Shown here: in pieces, positions 9,601 to 20,208 of the stretch | How positions within the stretch are numbered: position 1 is the stretch's first letter | How the letters are laid out: the number at the start of each line of letters is the position of its first letter | Assembly (NCBI RefSeq): GCF_007644045.2 | Contig: NZ_VMDW02000090.1 | Location: forward strand, 7,762 to 31,761 | Reading direction: 5' to 3' | DNA from: Vogesella urethralis | GTDB lineage: Bacteria > Pseudomonadota > Gammaproteobacteria > Burkholderiales > Chromobacteriaceae | DNA: 24,000 nucleotides | Translations under genes and position numbers: made by a program | Notes under the pieces: model-generated | Database searches by the model: none | What the model was told of the DNA's origin: nothing | The model's input: only the letters and a program-made list of their open reading frames with translations

Positions 9601-12540
9601 GCGCAGAACAGCAGCAGCGAAAGCCACAGCCGCGACGAGAAAAAATCCGGCTTGATGAGCAGCGGTGGGCTGGGCTTTACCATCGGCAAAGCTGCGCAAG
9701 GTAACGCCAACAGCGTCACCACCACCCAAGCAGTGGGCAGCACCCTCGGCAGCGTGCAGGGTGATGTGGTGATTCAAGCTGGCCAGGCCTATCGCCAGAC
9801 CGGTTCCAGCGTACTGACGCCACAGGGTGATATCGATGTGCAGGCGCAAAGCATCACCATCGAGGAGGCGCGCCAGCAAACGCGGGTGGACAGCAGTAGC
9901 TACAGCAAGCAAAGCGGGCTGACTGTGGCCATCAGCAACCCGGTTGTCAGCGCTGCGCAAACGGTACAGGGCATGCAGCAAGCCGCCAGCCAGACCGGCG
10001 ATGCCCGCATGCAAGCGTTGGCCGCCGCCAGTGCCGGGCTAGCCACCTACCGCGCCGCGCAAGACGTGGCCGCCCAGCCTGGGCAGCTGGGCGGCGTCAC
10101 CGTTAGCGCCAGCATCGGTAGCAGCCGTAGCAGCAGCCAAAACACGCAAAGTAGCAACCAGGCAGCGGCGTCCACCCTGGCCGCCGGCGGCAACCTCAGC
10201 CTGCGCGCCACAGGGGCAGGGCAAGCCAGCGACCTCACCGTACAAGGCAGTCAGTTGCAAGCTGGCGGCAACGCGCTATTGCAAGCCGATGACCAGATCA
10301 CGCTACAAGCCGCCCGCAATACCGCCGAGCAGCACAGCCGCAATAGCAGTGGCAGCGGCAGCATTGGTGTTAGCTGGAACACGGCGGCAGGCCCGCAAGC
10401 CACCCTCAGCGCCAGCCAGGGCCGAGGCCACGCCGATGGCAGCGACGTCACCTACAGCAACACTCACGTCAACGCCGGCCAGCAACTGACGCTCAGCAGC
10501 GGTGGCGATACCACGCTGCAAGGCGCCGTCGCCAGCGGGCAGCGTGTTACTGGTGACATCGGCGGCCAACTGCGCATCGACAGCCTGCAAGACAGTAGCC
10601 GCTACGACAGCCACCAACAGAACGCCGGCTTTAGCATCGCCGCCGGGACGGGGAGCGCCAGCGGCAGCATCAGTGCCGGCAACACCCGCATCGATAGCGA
10701 CTACCTGAACGTGGCCGAACAAAGCGGCCTGAAAGCCGGCGACGGCGGCTTCCAGCTCACGGTAAAAGGCGATACCACCCTCAGCGGCGGCGTCATCGCC
10801 AGCAGTAATGCCGCCGTGCAAGCCGGCGTCAACCGGCTGGACACCGCGGCCACCCACCTCAGCGACCTGCACAACCAGGCCAGCTACAAGGCCAGCGGCT
10901 ACAGCGTCAACGTCGGCGTCAGCAGTGGCAAACCCAGCGGCAGCGCCGGCATCGGACAAGACAGCGGCAGCGCTGCCTCCGACACCCGCGCTGGCATTAG
11001 CGGCATCGCCGGCAACAGCAGCGTGCGCAGCGGCGACGCCGAAACCGGCATCGCCAACCCGTTCGACGCCCAGCGCGTGGCGGCCAACGTGGGGGCACAG
11101 GTCGCCATCAGCGCAGAATTCGGCCGCCAGGCCCCGCGCGCGTGGGCCGACTACGCCCAGGCGCAGTACAAGGCAGCGCAAGCCAGTGGCAACGCCGACG
11201 AAGCCGCCAAATGGGCCGAAGGCGGCGCCTACCGCGTTGCCGGCCATAGCGTGCTGGGTGGGCTGTCCGGTGGCGTGGCCGGGGCAGCCGGCGCTGTCAG
11301 CAGCGCCAGCCTGATGCCCAAGCTGGGCGAGCAGCTGGACAGTAGCGACCTGCCCGCCGCCGTCAAGCAAGCCATCGGCATGGTAGCCAGCGCCACGCTG
11401 GGGGCGGTCAGCGGCGGTGCTGCTGGCGCGGCGATCGGGCTGAATGTGGATGTCAACAACCGGCAGTTGCATCCGGAGGAAGAGCGTGCCATTGCCCAGC
11501 TTGCGAAGGGTGATAAGGACAAGGCCCAGCGCTTGCGTGCGGCGGCCTGCTATCTGGTGAAATGTTCTGCAGAGTTCCTGAGTGGCCCTCAAGCCGATTA
11601 CTACAGTCAACTGGAGCGACAAGGCGCCAGTATGCAAAGCGAACAGCAACAGTTACTGCAATATCAAGAAACTGTGATATTGCAAAAGGCTAGTGGTTAC
11701 CCCGCAGTCCAGACCGTTACCATAAAAAATCTGTTCCAGTACAGCAGGGAAGACCTGGTTGCAGATAGCCATGCTCGCCTGACGGAGTTGCGGGTGAGTC
11801 AATTGGGCAGTCTTGGCCTGACCCCGTCGCAGGCGCATTCATTGCTCGCCACAGCGGGTACCGCCGCCTTGGTTGCAGGCACCGTTGCTGGGTACAAGCT
11901 CGGGGGGCTGGATGAGCTATTGGCGACAGCCAAGGTTGAAAATAATGCCGGCGCCAAGCTTAATAATCAGTTTTATCGTGATGGCGCGATTGCGGATACG
12001 TCCAGGACGTTGTCTGTGGGTGGTCCTTGGAAGGCAGCAGTAGAACTGACGCCTAAAGAAGCCAACAACCTGCTAAATAGCAGCTTGCCAGTTGGTGCCA
12101 AGATAACGGGCAGGCAGGACGCTAATCTTGAGAACGCTAAAGCTATTGCAGAAGGCTATCAACCACCCTTTGTGCAAGGAACACAGGTGCTGCAGATTGT
12201 GATCGATAAACCAACGAAGTTTGTTCGTGTATTTGGTGGTGATTCGGGGCAGGTAGGAAGTTGGGTGATGAAAGCCGAGGATGTTGTAGGTCTGACGCCC
12301 CAACAGATTGCCAGCAAGTACAGTTTGCCGCAGGTACCGACCATGATTGGTGACGTTACTTTGCCAGCCAGAACAAAAATGAATGTGAGTGTGGCTGGCG
12401 GTATATCCCCTGGCGCTGCAAAAGGCGTAGTGACTGGTGATAATGGTGGCGGCGGCGGTGTGCAGTTTCAAATAACTACCAGACCGCTATCTCGAGATGA
12501 ATTTGCGAATTGGTTCGGAAATGCACGGGTGTTGAAATGA
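3472..12540 (+). CDS. cdiA: CdiA contact-dependent inhibition exoprotein (filamentous-haemagglutinin-family TpsA) with polymorphic C-terminal toxin
   Basis: 3022-aa ORF with AGGAG at 3460-3464, 7 nt before the ATG. It carries an ESPR-like N-terminus, TPS-domain motifs, two long FHA-type repeat tracts, a PT-VENN-like Gly/Ala-rich pretoxin region ending VDVNN, and a compositionally distinct C-terminal region. Confidence 0.95.
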   Translation: MNQHCYRLVFNAHRRMLMAVAEITPQQGANASATRARPVVGRLSAALRPLVACLLLAHGAVWTLPAAAQIVADPAVPGSQRPTVLTTSSGAVQVNIQTPSAAGVSLNQYRQFDTGDAGTILNNSRVNVQTQSAGWVAANPWLATGSARVIVNQVNSQHPSLLRGTLEVAGQRAEVIIANPAGLQVSGATFLNASRTVLTSGTPVINGGSLDGYRVSGGQVSIGGNGLDTSASDYTAILARSVAANAGIWAQQLQVGTGSQAYAADGSGQGALAASGPAPAFALDVAALGGMYAGKIVLVGTEHGLGVRNAGKLVAGAGGLRLQADGQLLNSGTLGATDAAADVQLQTGAVSNDGTLSSARNLQLDSSGRLSNQGTLSAARQLTLNAAQLDNASSGAIDAQRLAITTATLNNSGQLRQSGSQVLAVQAGQLQNSGSIGALPAQAAPGSGASAGAGSGNAEATVVQPLPLPEVAPAAGSSVQAAAPEVLPAGSIQVSGLLDNRGRILANGGIDLASQGGLVNHGTLALRQLQVGGERFDNSQGSLSAQAANIDTLTIGNQQGKLQIQGDAVLHSQAFDNRDGQIGAGGSLQLRSSQLDNQHGSVVAGQTLTVQGEALDNRAGTLASVGELQLQAGSVDNRGGRLQGEAGLRVQADGVLDNREHGLLSAAASLVVQAASVLNQQGEMAAARVQAQSLGGWQNAEGKLLSQQSLYLQAANLDNQAGQILAGQDGSVMASGTIRNQVGRLQAAQRLQLQAEEVQNGGGLLAGQALQLESGSGGLDNRGGRVLAGLQGGQLAGSGLNNTAGVIYSDGALQIDTRGQLLDNSAGGQLQSQAALQLDTGLLDNRQAQLLAAGPLNVHASALDNRGGQVQSAAGITVQLAAALHNEDGLLRSNAGLRVQADQLYNQQTRHSDRGIEAASIQLQTPHLFNQQGALRGDYLTLRLGQLANQQGELSARQQLSLSPDDGAELHIDNDGGTLQAGDRLHLQATGLQGQGRLLSAGALNLQLAGDFRHDGQLQAGTDARLSIHGRLSNAGSLQAGRQLRIEAAALDNRNGASVAADETRLDITGQLDNRGLIDGRLTRITAGVLANDSTGRIYGDRLVIQARTVQNTGDGHAAPVIAARQQLDIAAGQISNQEQALIFSGGDMVLGGALDAAERATGQAGSLDNASARIETLGQLTLAVDTLQNRDTHLQYQYQPGPVSRTVTHYLNGVALDSAGLLLAKWEGDGIAYVPPEQTDWLGDDDYRKLLILSPRYPLSRFAAYYQHFPAPSQDYSYTKCRKDENCTTTQVGGAWYGNSDPIWATFGVLPPPGEPPLSADNPGRRYAGISLGQTSYSVTIDPPPEKGSAIRTLYFDHPVTQQELQEWQRWSAWHDNEYVPAHAKLDAAIGEFAPLISTNAAPVRMLDAGAQWVDNWRYRDSTSSTQTPVVSATQPGEIVAGGDLSITLGRSGSNHSRILAGQNLVVTGGKLDNIALQEDAITDIQGVDVYTHVESRRFKGDVRRNDSSPFANTERHAVVLQQGISQAHQAWQDGHAAPSALSLLSAPSGDAMAAPGHVSVTGQQTLPGVTELALPASVNGALDVIRTGGLSLTLPRSRLYLQQPERSAKVLIQTDPRFTQYGKWLSSDYMLSQLASDPAASQKRLGDGFYEQKLIRDQVAQLTGRRFLDGYASDEAQYRALMDSGLTFARQYGLRPGVALSAEQMARLSSDIVWLVSETLTLPDGSQQSVLTPRLYVRTTPGDLQADGALLSGDRINLTLAGDLNNSGSIAGRRLVDIKAANFSQQGGQLSAADIQVQASHNLHNLGGQIGASNSLQLHAGNDLTLASTTRQADGVNDQRTYLDRIASLYLSGGNGLLLASAGGNLTLQGATIVNQAAAGQTLLQAGKDLQLATLTTQSSHQAQWAPGNALQESQQQDNGSQISSQGSLYLQASGDVHATAANVSSAQGHLGLQAGGNIQLDSGQSRTQLDETHHNSQKGLLSSRSTTTRDTLDQTQAIGSQLSGQTVSVSAGKDLTVTGSSIASDLATTLNAGGNVTLAAAQNSSSESHSRDEKKSGLMSSGGLGFTIGKAAQGNANSVTTTQAVGSTLGSVQGDVVIQAGQAYRQTGSSVLTPQGDIDVQAQSITIEEARQQTRVDSSSYSKQSGLTVAISNPVVSAAQTVQGMQQAASQTGDARMQALAAASAGLATYRAAQDVAAQPGQLGGVTVSASIGSSRSSSQNTQSSNQAAASTLAAGGNLSLRATGAGQASDLTVQGSQLQAGGNALLQADDQITLQAARNTAEQHSRNSSGSGSIGVSWNTAAGPQATLSASQGRGHADGSDVTYSNTHVNAGQQLTLSSGGDTTLQGAVASGQRVTGDIGGQLRIDSLQDSSRYDSHQQNAGFSIAAGTGSASGSISAGNTRIDSDYLNVAEQSGLKAGDGGFQLTVKGDTTLSGGVIASSNAAVQAGVNRLDTAATHLSDLHNQASYKASGYSVNVGVSSGKPSGSAGIGQDSGSAASDTRAGISGIAGNSSVRSGDAETGIANPFDAQRVAANVGAQVAISAEFGRQAPRAWADYAQAQYKAAQASGNADEAAKWAEGGAYRVAGHSVLGGLSGGVAGAAGAVSSASLMPKLGEQLDSSDLPAAVKQAIGMVASATLGAVSGGAAGAAIGLNVDVNNRQLHPEEERAIAQLAKGDKDKAQRLRAAACYLVKCSAEFLSGPQADYYSQLERQGASMQSEQQQLLQYQETVILQKASGYPAVQTVTIKNLFQYSREDLVADSHARLTELRVSQLGSLGLTPSQAHSLLATAGTAALVAGTVAGYKLGGLDELLATAKVENNAGAKLNNQFYRDGAIADTSRTLSVGGPWKAAVELTPKEANNLLNSSLPVGAKITGRQDANLENAKAIAEGYQPPFVQGTQVLQIVIDKPTKFVRVFGGDSGQVGSWVMKAEDVVGLTPQQIASKYSLPQVPTMIGDVTLPARTKMNVSVAGGISPGAAKGVVTGDNGGGGGVQFQITTRPLSRDEFANWFGNARVLK
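3676..4416 (+). other. TPS (haemagglutination activity) secretion domain of CdiA
   Basis: VQVNIQTPSAAGVSLNQYRQFD, GTILNNS, AANPWL (NPNL-like), RAEVIIANPAGLQVSG (NPNGI-like) and GKIVLVGTEHGLGVRN. The boundaries are approximate. Confidence 0.8.
4420..7010 (+). repeat. FHA-1-type degenerate beta-helix repeats (protein-level periodicity within cdiA)
   Basis: Recurrent units of about 20 residues of the form LDN(R/Q)xGxLxAxxxLxLQAxx, for example LDNRAGTLASVGELQLQAGSVDNRGGRLQGEAGLRVQADGVLDNRE. The DNA copies are degenerate and the boundaries approximate. Confidence 0.7.
8720..10460 (+). repeat. FHA-2-type repeat tract of CdiA
   Basis: A second repeat style rich in G/S/Q/T/N: GDLNNSGSIAGRR, ASHNLHNLGGQIGASNSLQLHAGNDLTLAS, AGKDLTVTGSSIAS, AGGNVTLAAAQNS, GGNLSLRATG. 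The boundaries are approximate. Confidence 0.6.
10473..11477 (+). repeat. Direct repeat R1, copy a (within cdiA)
   Basis: It aligns without gaps to 14163-15167. In the 120 nt I compared base by base there were 10 mismatches. It also aligns to 17556-18186 over 10510-11167. Confidence 0.9.
11446..11475 (+). other. Pretoxin boundary motif VDVNNRQLHP (VENN-equivalent) separating conserved CdiA from variable CT
   Basis: The Gly/Ala-rich segment ...AIGMVASATLGAVSGGAAGAAIGLNVDVNNRQLHP is shared with the orphan copy at 15136-15165. The two sequences become unrelated immediately after it. Confidence 0.8.
11935..11946 (+). other. Second, literal VENN motif inside the CdiA-CT
   Basis: The codons gtt gaa aat aat encode VENN at the end of ..AGTAALVAGTVAGYKLGGLDELLATAKVENN, 197 codons before the stop. 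Confidence 0.6.
11947..12537 (+). other. C-terminal toxin domain of CdiA, tentatively TNT-like (NAD+ glycohydrolase / ART-related)
   Basis: KFVRVFGGDSGQVGSWVM ... SKYSLPQVP ... NVSVAGGISPGAAKGVVTGDNGGGGGVQFQI resembles, from memory, the TNT pattern (xDRxGxxxGxY...RALP...V..vAP..GqpGGxxQ). This is a tentative by-eye call. Confidence 0.45.

Positions 12541-20208: not shown

Follow-up and report, generated by a model that had tools for sequence, protein, structure and literature searches.

Orphan cdiA-CT/cdiI arrays have been known since 2011 from the contact-dependent growth inhibition (CDI) loci of Escherichia coli EC93 and EC869 and of Yersinia (PMC3150448). [quoted passage not shown] Such arrays undergo co-transcription and yield only the immunity protein; recombination can load their C-terminal toxin regions (CTs) onto cdiA (PMC3150448). 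Our literature search found no CDI system described for Vogesella, a genus of the Chromobacteriaceae. Here, we analysed a stretch of 24,000 nucleotides from Vogesella urethralis (contig NZ_VMDW02000090.1, positions 7,762 to 31,761; hereafter the window). We consider it very likely that the window holds an E. coli-type cdiBAI system followed by four displaced orphan toxin/immunity cassettes, and that this array is an immunity store as well as a toxin reservoir.

As in the E. coli and Yersinia arrays, the cdiB, cdiA and cdiI genes are followed by cdiA fragments in which the pre-toxin motif is kept and initiation signals are missing, and an immunity gene comes after each. Also as in those arrays, the same CT is found on the full-length CdiA of another strain, and homology tracts permit exchange. 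The Vogesella array differs in that its boundary motif reads VDVNN rather than VENN and Pfam PT-VENN gives no match to CdiA (E ≤ 0.001), in that cdiA homology is wholly absent from two of the four orphans, which begin just past the toxin-domain boundary, and in that one orphan toxin has a nonsense codon in its inter-domain linker. The gene content, homologies, motifs, toxin–immunity co-occurrence, lesions and cassette exchange between sister genomes are observations, and the features concerned are as follows.

1694-3457, + strand: cdiB, encoding a TpsB/Omp85 transporter (Pfam ShlB, E 1e-100; POTRA_2 and POTRA_3)
3472-12540, + strand: cdiA, encoding a 3022-aa exoprotein (WP_144372134.1, an exact protein-collection match) with ESPR, two-partner secretion (TPS), Fil_haemagg and Fil_haemagg_2 domains
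12537-20208, + strand: ten to eleven small open reading frames (ORFs)
Module 1, + strand: CT1 (11461-12540) and cdiI (12537-12998)
11461-12057, + strand: N-terminal part of CdiA-CT1 with two Cys, a presumed entry domain called from sequence
12058-12540, + strand: CdiA-CT1 toxin domain, predicted Tne2/Tse6-like (broad TNT-like) NADase fold, from an AlphaFold2 model and Foldseek
12537-12998, + strand: cdiI-1, candidate immunity gene for CT1 (153 aa), with an ATGA overlap with the cdiA stop and no Pfam or NCBIfam family
13014-13586, + strand: headless BURPS668_1122-family deaminase domain in a 190-aa ORF (PF14424, E 1.1e-21) with a TTG start and no Shine-Dalgarno sequence
13588-14070, + strand: candidate deaminase immunity gene (160 aa) with a GGGAGG Shine-Dalgarno sequence and homologues behind deaminases
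14149-15810, + strand: orphan 1, a cdiA fragment (cdiA homology 14157-15167, VDVNN 15136-15150) with a distinct CT N-terminal domain, ending in TAG at 15808-15810
15811-16404, + strand: orphan 1 toxin domain, a predicted PD-(D/E)xK nuclease of 197 aa (WP_206210942.1), from a conserved motif
16392-17414, + strand: candidate immunity gene for the orphan 1 nuclease (340 aa), from conserved adjacency to the toxin, with an all-alpha model
17457-18380, + strand: orphan 2, a chimera found by blastn that contains a 289-aa ORF (17511-18380)
18374-18832, + strand: cdiI-o2, a variant CdiI of 152 aa with a TTG start and an AAGGAA Shine-Dalgarno sequence
18855-19331, + strand: headless PoNe-type PD-(D/E)xK DNase domain (158 aa) with the complete PoNe motif and PoNi directly downstream
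19328-20208, + strand: PoNi pseudogene, with PF08928 (PoNi_N, E 6e-7) and PF08929 (PoNi_C, E 3e-18) in different frames

The 3022-aa CdiA is a large exoprotein with a signal peptide, a TPS domain and filamentous haemagglutinin (FHA) repeats, and its gene adjoins that of a TpsB/Omp85 transporter with POTRA domains. The VDVNN motif of cdiA occupies nucleotides 11446-11460. The homology between cdiA and the orphans stops at 11477, about 17 nucleotides further on, and VDVNN therefore appears to be equivalent in role to the VENN of E. coli. Relatives have NVDANN and NADANN followed by RQLH. A blastn self-comparison of the window gave the following tracts.

14157-15167 against cdiA 10467-11477: 93.6% over 1011 bp
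17556-18189 against cdiA 10510-11170: 90.6% (661 bp)
18171-18321 against 12324-12475 (toxin 3' end): 94%
18497-18850 against 12663-13016 (3' two-thirds of cdiI plus 18 nucleotides): 89%

This cdiA homology of the orphans is far above chance expectation. The module 3 segment, composed of the CT N-terminal part, the toxin ORF and the 340-aa gene, is flanked on both sides by cdiA-like sequence and is exactly reproduced by the assemblies of three independent read sets (L001–L003). An assembly artefact was rejected for the repeated cdiA segments, both on this ground and because the copies differ by 6–10%. Modules 2 (13014-14070) and 5 (18855-20208) are without cdiA homology. The same stretch of about 18 nucleotides (12999-13016 and 18833-18850) follows each cdiI stop and directly precedes both headless modules, which places the cdiI–deaminase and cdiI–PoNe junctions at equivalent points. 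The G+C content, at 65–70% for cdiB and cdiA, falls to 43% for each of the two cdiI genes, with a local minimum of 30% in 100-nucleotide windows and 35.5% in 200-nucleotide windows. Shine-Dalgarno sequences are present ahead of the immunity genes and not ahead of the headless toxins.

We compared the window with related genomes, in particular with a syntenic Vogesella metagenome-assembled genome (MAG; GCA_046297735.1, L044). The main CdiA of L044, of 3114 aa, carries the orphan 1 CT without interruption, with 96.8% identity in the N-terminal part and 84% in the toxin. Downstream lie an immunity gene of 345 aa (71%), an NADase remnant whose deletion junction reads AQAQ|SMIGDV, a cdiI-1-type gene (98.7%) and 56 deaminase codons. 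The same CT/immunity pair is thus found on a full-length cdiA in L044, showing that modules move between expressed and orphan positions. The array would accordingly serve not just to store immunity genes but also as a recombining reservoir. An IS3-like element with OrfA/OrfB-like ORFs (11131-12300 of L044) cuts the deaminase after codon 56, and L044 lacks the 160-aa gene as well as the PoNe domain and PoNi. In the metagenomic contig L034 (1345-1769), cdiI-1 (95%) is followed by deaminase codons 2–112 joined to PoNe codons 60–90; this junction could represent a deletion variant of the array, or else an assembly chimera. V. aquatica (L004, 3312-10661) has an orphan array of its own behind a cdiA, with a true TNT cassette (PF14021, 2e-22), two PT-VENN orphans and an Imm49 gene; its nuclease/343-aa pair has the nuclease in an uninterrupted ORF of 374 aa. 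In sister genomes, the same cassettes thus sit in expressed as well as orphan positions, and they are lost piecemeal, as Poole et al. (PMC3150448) have proposed for orphan modules.

Two short patches of the array deviate strongly from otherwise conserved surroundings. Between the window and L044, identity drops to 40–65% only over about 16170-16880, and between modules 1 and 4 it drops to 40–60% over about 12476-12700 (compared with 18322-18540); in both cases the flanks are 92–100% identical. Both hypervariable patches span the 3' end of a toxin and the 5' part of its immunity gene. This pattern suggests that the toxin C-terminus and the immunity N-terminus are exchanged together by recombination as a specificity cassette. 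Taken jointly, that the array holds three uncharacterised toxin/immunity families and a short hypervariable specificity cassette exchanged as a unit is a tentative reading, to which we give somewhat less than an even chance.

In module 1, the toxin domain is formed by the last 160 residues of CdiA, for which only 19 homologous clusters were detected, none with a Pfam domain; the named homologues are the C-termini of 'filamentous haemagglutinin' proteins. R57 and the GGGGVQ136 loop are invariant in an alignment of 15 family members. The AlphaFold2 model of the domain has a mean predicted local distance difference test score (pLDDT) of 83 and a predicted TM-score (pTM) of 0.77, and its best five PDB matches in Foldseek are Tne2 (6B12), Tse6 (4ZV4, 4ZV0) and Serratia Rhs1-CT (6XTD). 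The Foldseek probabilities are 0.72–1.0 for these five, 0.05 for the next match and at most 0.08 for all others. The match with Tne2 6B12 has an E-value of 0.016, a probability of 1.0 and a TM-score of 0.67 on the target. The sequence identity to these toxins is 10–17%. [quoted passage not shown] CT1 resembles Tne2 (6B12), Tse6/Tne1 (4ZV0, 4ZV4) and Rhs1-CT (6XTD) in its predicted fold, in the conserved Arg and in the Gly-rich loop followed by Gln, and also in that every such family comes with an unrelated immunity protein of its own. Unlike these toxins, which are delivered by the type VI secretion system, CT1 is carried on a CdiA of the type V secretion system (T5SS), and its CdiI belongs to an unannotated family. 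By its model, the CT1 domain shares the broad TNT-like palm-domain NADase fold and most likely hydrolyses NAD(P)+.

Membership of CT1 in the TNT family proper was considered and rejected. Pfam TNT (PF14021) has no match at E ≤ 5 for CT1 or any of the 15 family members, and hhalign of the CT1 family with the genuine V. aquatica TNT domain of L004 gave nothing significant (E 0.21). Weak, sub-threshold Ntox10 matches were seen in nine of the 15 members. The N-terminal part of CT1 has no match in Pfam, NCBIfam or PDB sequence searches and is presumed to be the entry domain because the known CdiA-CT architecture has two domains. Between this part and the toxin domain lies a second, canonical VENN motif (11935-11991, AKVENNAGAKLNNQFYRDG; 'VENN…NNQFYRDG').

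The immunity gene cdiI-1 starts directly at the end of cdiA, in the ATGA overlap, and co-varies with the CT: homologues of CdiI-1, with 41–58% identity over residues 37–153, lie downstream of CT1-type toxins in four metagenomic loci (L029–L032). In module 4, the CdiI-o2 protein is 88% identical to CdiI-1 over residues 42–152 and has an unrelated N-terminus of about 41 residues. CdiI-o2 can be aligned from end to end (48%) with the CdiI of L029, and CdiI-1 cannot. The toxin gene ahead of it, orphan 2, is assembled from a scrap resembling cdiA 8535-8624, a region homologous to cdiA 10510-11170 and the C-terminal ~64 residues of a CT1-type toxin. It is a deletion remnant that goes back to a second allele of the NADase-type toxin. 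The deletion removed VDVNN together with the entry domain and the invariant R57, and about 96 of the ~160 toxin-domain residues are missing, so that the orphan 2 toxin is predicted to be dead. Its deletion junction reads AQAQ|SMIGDV, and the same junction is found in P0105 of the Vogesella MAG. The scrap (90 nucleotides, 17457-17545, 78% identical to cdiA 8535-8624) precedes orphan 2 and provides the ATG of the 289-aa ORF; it is evidence of an older, more complex rearrangement.

In module 3, the cdiA-homologous part extends through the pre-toxin motif and continues into a CT other than that of the main CdiA. Orphan 1 offers as its earliest in-frame start only an arbitrary TTG, which lacks a Shine-Dalgarno sequence. 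The in-frame TAG separates the CT N-terminal domain from the 197-aa toxin ORF in the same frame; it sits in the linker, about 30 residues ahead of the toxin domain, with GTG directly after it and AAGGGG just upstream of that GTG. At this site, the main CdiA of L044 reads GVPPAKGQVVAPEG (~8043-8045) and the window reads GVPPAKG*VVAPEG. Since the L044 protein reads through, the TAG of the window is a CAG→TAG nonsense mutation. Across 15 homologues of the nuclease, G68-E69, G94-C-D96 and A114-K115 are invariant and D113 is nearly invariant, giving an E…D…(D/E)xK signature spaced as in PoNe. The homologues are C-termini of filamentous haemagglutinins, one PT-TG protein, or short stand-alone Pseudomonas remnants. 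The domain resembles the PD-(D/E)xK CdiA-CT nucleases (for example the tRNases of Burkholderia pseudomallei 1026b and E479; PMC9086364) in this signature and in its dedicated downstream immunity gene, and, like these nucleases and the Tox-REase families, it is found at CdiA-like C-termini. It differs from them in the unusually large immunity protein (340 aa, all-alpha), for which there is no PDB fold match. The searches gave no hidden Markov model (HMM) match for the nuclease in Pfam or NCBIfam, the Tox-REase Pfam models included, and no PDB sequence match.

The spacing of GE, G[IC]D and [DE]xK is nearly alike in the module 3 nuclease and PoNe-like families; common ancestry is an impression only, and hhalign of the two families was not significant (E 0.3). 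Stand-alone nuclease homologues of about 129 residues are annotated in many Pseudomonas genomes (P0076–P0088), starting M(L)GEQLAL at the conserved GE helix. Each is ahead of a 340-aa homologue, and they look like headless orphan remnants.

The adjacency of the nuclease and the 340-aa gene is strongly conserved. In our genome scan, a full-length 340-aa homologue starts within about 10 nucleotides of the toxin end in more than 20 of 25 toxin-encoding loci, and the pair is found in Vogesella, Limnohabitans and Pseudomonas. On these sequence grounds, the 340-aa gene is the best-supported immunity candidate of the array. The family comprises at least 225 homologous clusters, all of them without a Pfam domain, and 40 of its members searched against Pfam gave nothing at E ≤ 1 beyond scattered chance matches; the PDB sequence search also gave no match. 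The AlphaFold2 model of the protein is all-alpha (pLDDT 92, pTM 0.91), and the comparison with the PDB by Foldseek gave no fold match (best E 1.5, TM-score below 0.25). The possibility that the protein is a divergent PoNi was rejected, since hhalign of the 340-aa family with PoNi gave nothing. In Pseudomonas L009 (852-2894) and L016 (6474-12340), 340-aa homologues adjoin PoNi homologues with no PoNe between them, a polyimmunity-like arrangement, and in Pseudomonas L015 (6001-8980) the nuclease/immunity pair is tandemly duplicated.

The cytosine-deaminase-family domain of module 2 matches PF14424 with 77.9 bits against a gathering cut-off of 29.6, over profile positions 11–146 of 146. An exhaustive HMMER search found 740 relatives, of which 15 were inspected for motifs. 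D92, E94, P123, C124 and C127 are invariant across 11 aligned relatives, and both D92-T-E94 and P123-C124-x-x-C127 of the window protein agree with the family consensus. We considered whether DTE, found where HxE would be expected, is an inactivating His→Asp lesion and rejected this, as D[TS]E and PCxxC are present in all 15 relatives inspected; D[TS]E is the consensus, and the zinc-binding and catalytic motifs of the deaminase are therefore intact. The relatives have the domain at the C-terminus of toxins of 350–1700 aa, some of them CdiA-like with NVDANNRQLH, and the ORF of the window is the bare domain. In six of the ten closest relatives (P0231, P0232, P0234, P0236, P0240 and P0241), a motif [VI]E[NL]N..[RT][DE] lies about 102 residues ahead of DxE, and the window ORF begins about 10 residues past the expected site of this motif. 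An internal VENN-type motif may mark a second recombination junction that produces headless cassettes.

In comparison with the BURPS668_1122 family as described (PF14424; Zhang et al. 2012, PMC3482391), the window copy has the HMM score above threshold and D[TS]E with PCxxC; the family domain sits at the C-termini of polymorphic toxins, CdiA-like ones included, and the window copy is stand-alone and N-terminally truncated. The immunity families listed for these deaminases are Imm2, Imm3 and SUKH (PMC3482391), and the 160-aa protein encoded downstream matches none of them. The gene for this protein has the best Shine-Dalgarno sequence of the array (GGGAGG). A homologue with 60% identity lies directly downstream of a deaminase homologue in L033, and in L035 another (27%, E 1e-16) follows a deaminase homologue on a CdiA-like protein whose length exceeds 1176 aa.

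The headless ORF of module 5 matches the whole published PoNe motif, Kx3GExnGIDx2YxnYx3ExK (PMC6688995), with K6-x3-G10-E11, G38-I-D40-x2-Y43 and Y52-x3-E56-x-K58. It has no obvious Shine-Dalgarno sequence. PoNi starts at 19328, overlapping the PoNe stop. The module is like the described PoNe/PoNi pairs (Jana et al. 2019, PMC6688995) in the complete motif and in the DUF1910+DUF1911 gene directly downstream, and association of PoNe with the T5SS has also been reported (PMC6688995). It is unlike them in that PoNe has no delivery domain and PoNi is disrupted. An intact PoNi copy of 293 aa is found at the same genomic site in the related assembly L045 (94.6% nucleotide identity), relative to which the window has C→T at 19721 (CAG→TAG) and a 1-nucleotide deletion after 19744. 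PoNi is thus a pseudogene with a nonsense codon and a frameshift. Since protection by PoNi proteins with DUF1911 only is described (PMC6688995), the PoNi_C fragment, if translated, might still be functional. Both nonsense mutations of the array (15808 and 19721) are C→T in a G-C-A context; these are two events and no evidence of anything.

Profile scans of all the small ORFs with Pfam, NCBIfam and PADLOC gave matches for the deaminase and PoNi only. PDB sequence searches with CT1, the deaminase, the nuclease family, the PoNe-like family, PoNi and the 340-aa family, as single sequences or profiles, were uninformative. The 153/152-aa and 160-aa proteins, together with two homologues of each, have no Pfam match at E ≤ 10 apart from one sub-threshold chance match on the 152-aa variant (Beta-prop_CGLA, E 0.071), and the 153/152-aa, 160-aa and 340-aa proteins have no NCBIfam match.

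These results bear on a sequence-only reading of the same DNA, which had placed five toxin/immunity modules with four different toxin folds behind one cdiA. All five modules are present, all on the + strand, with only module 1 on a delivery-competent CdiA, two orphans with cdiA homology and two headless, as had been proposed. The deaminase and PoNi-like calls were borne out by profile matches and the PoNe-like call by the published motif, and the proposed TNT-like remnant with a variant CdiI in module 4 was recovered as the toxin fragment ahead of CdiI-o2. The TNT-like call for CT1 holds at the level of the fold and fails against Pfam TNT and in hhalign; the PD-(D/E)xK call for module 3 has the conserved motif behind it and no profile or PDB match. 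The number of folds must be corrected: PoNe itself belongs to the PD-(D/E)xK family (PMC6688995), and the array therefore has four toxin families with three folds. The claimed composition jumps between cdiA and cdiI are real, although the lower bound of 25% G+C is never reached. The three immunity ORFs other than PoNi were said to belong to no recognised family; they indeed have none in Pfam or NCBIfam, and each follows toxin homologues elsewhere.

On the basis of established CDI biology (PMC3150448, PMC9086364), from which we infer enzymatic activities, expression and protection, the locus would work as follows. CdiB would export CdiA as a filament of 3022 aa. When a neighbouring cell is contacted, the part of CdiA that follows VDVNN, comprising the entry domain and the Tne2/Tse6-like domain of about 160 aa, would be delivered, and the NADase-fold domain would deplete NAD(P)+ in the target cell. 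The producer and its siblings would be protected by the 153-aa CdiI-1 encoded by the overlapping gene. The orphan region would be transcribed by read-through from cdi; immunity genes with Shine-Dalgarno sequences would probably be translated and protect against neighbours deploying those toxins. The orphan toxin fragments would be neither efficiently translated nor exportable, the latter for want of a signal peptide, a TPS domain and a filament. RecA-dependent recombination across the 0.6–1 kb tracts of cdiA homology would reload cdiA with a stored CT; as these tracts permit cassette movement, the array would also be a toxin reservoir.

Among the alternatives, the one that survives best is that the downstream cassettes are decaying neutral remnants of past toxin replacements, with no role in immunity or as a reservoir. 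The nonsense codon of orphan 1, the loss of about 96 of the ~160 toxin-domain residues in orphan 2, the nonsense codon and frameshift of PoNi, and the further loss in relatives (the IS3-like truncation in L044 and the deaminase joined to PoNe in L034) all agree with decay. We nevertheless regard this as unlikely, because four of the five immunity ORFs are full length, several with good Shine-Dalgarno sequences, three orphan toxin domains keep every family-invariant residue, three independent read sets agree exactly on module 3 and the orphan 1 CT is in use on the main CdiA of L044. An orphan CdiI is, moreover, expressed and functional in E. coli EC93 (PMC3150448). The same evidence qualifies what the sequence-only reading had said of function. 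Most immunity ORFs are indeed intact, being full length relative to their families in four of five cases, with the PoNi pseudogene as the exception. Most toxins are disabled with respect to delivery, but not with respect to catalytic motifs, as three of the four orphan toxins keep complete catalytic domains. In related genomes, parts of the array are lost (L044 and L034), and an immunity island is too narrow a description, since L044 has the orphan 1 toxin on its main CdiA.

It is very unlikely that the headless toxins are translated in the producer and form, with their immunity genes, toxin–antitoxin-like addiction modules that stabilise the island and are not shields. The complete catalytic domains of the deaminase, the module 3 nuclease and PoNe, with in-frame TTG, GTG or internal ATG starts, would allow this, as would the AAGGGG just upstream of the nuclease GTG, and the nuclease and PoNe-like ORFs are annotated as proteins by NCBI. 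Against it, the PoNe motif is intact and PoNi is broken, so that any PoNe made should damage DNA unless PoNi_C alone protects; no Shine-Dalgarno sequence could be recognised ahead of the deaminase and PoNe ORFs, and orphan toxin protein is undetectable in EC93 (PMC3150448). Finally, the idea of an ordinary FHA-type adhesin/haemolysin two-partner system with unrelated small genes and no toxin/immunity system, which could appeal to the missing PT-VENN match of CdiA and to its NCBI name of merely 'hemagglutinin repeat-containing protein', has next to no chance and is effectively refuted already, as the orphan homology demarcates the polymorphic C-terminus exactly at VDVNN, an NADase-toxin fold, the Pfam toxin deaminase and PoNi are present, and toxin–immunity co-occurrence is conserved in dozens of loci.

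Some observations weigh against our interpretation of the locus as a cdiBAI system with a functional orphan array. A promoter and terminator scan of the array found no σ70-like promoter on the + strand, with counts within chance, and read-through transcription is assumed. The only starts available to cdiI-o2 are TTG or GTG. The combination of a broken PoNi and an intact PoNe motif fits an unexpressed and decaying module better than a maintained one. With regard to the toxins, the Foldseek E-values of CT1 are modest (0.016–0.18), the TNT structure 4QLP is not among the 50 Foldseek matches listed, and the module 3 toxin is predicted to be a PD-(D/E)xK nuclease on its motif alone.

Two genes border the locus.

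1-1458: M20 peptidase gene
20394-22163, − strand: methyl-accepting chemotaxis protein gene, the right-hand border of the island (MCPsignal, 4HB_MCP_1)

The right-hand flank is 95% conserved in L044 and is also present in L045. Scans of the window for tRNA genes and against Rfam gave no matches.

In summary, this is a known kind of system; what is new is a CDI locus in Vogesella, an NADase-fold CdiA toxin and three immunity families for which the databases hold no model. A 2022 review of CDI effectors mentions no NADase, deaminase or ADP-ribosyl toxin, and our literature search for CdiA together with NADase found no dedicated paper. CT1 and CdiI-1 may therefore represent, by the model, a toxin of NADase fold that CdiA delivers, together with a new CdiI family. 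The PD-(D/E)xK-type toxin paired with the 340-aa all-alpha immunity protein may be an uncharacterised family, and the 160-aa protein may, from its sequence and position, be a new immunity family for BURPS668_1122 deaminases. The architecture has been known since 2011 and the view of CDI is unchanged; the value of the locus is that of a compact, well-resolved example. The pair of sister genomes, with the same toxin on the main CdiA in one and as a silenced orphan in the other, is direct comparative evidence of cassette switching. The array also provides testable pairs for unnamed families, namely the NADase-fold toxin with its CdiI, the nuclease with the 340-aa protein of unmatched fold, and the immunity protein of the deaminase. 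Deaminase toxins of this kind have been a source of base-editing enzymes (DddA, SsdA), and given this use, a new deaminase/inhibitor pair would be of some practical interest.

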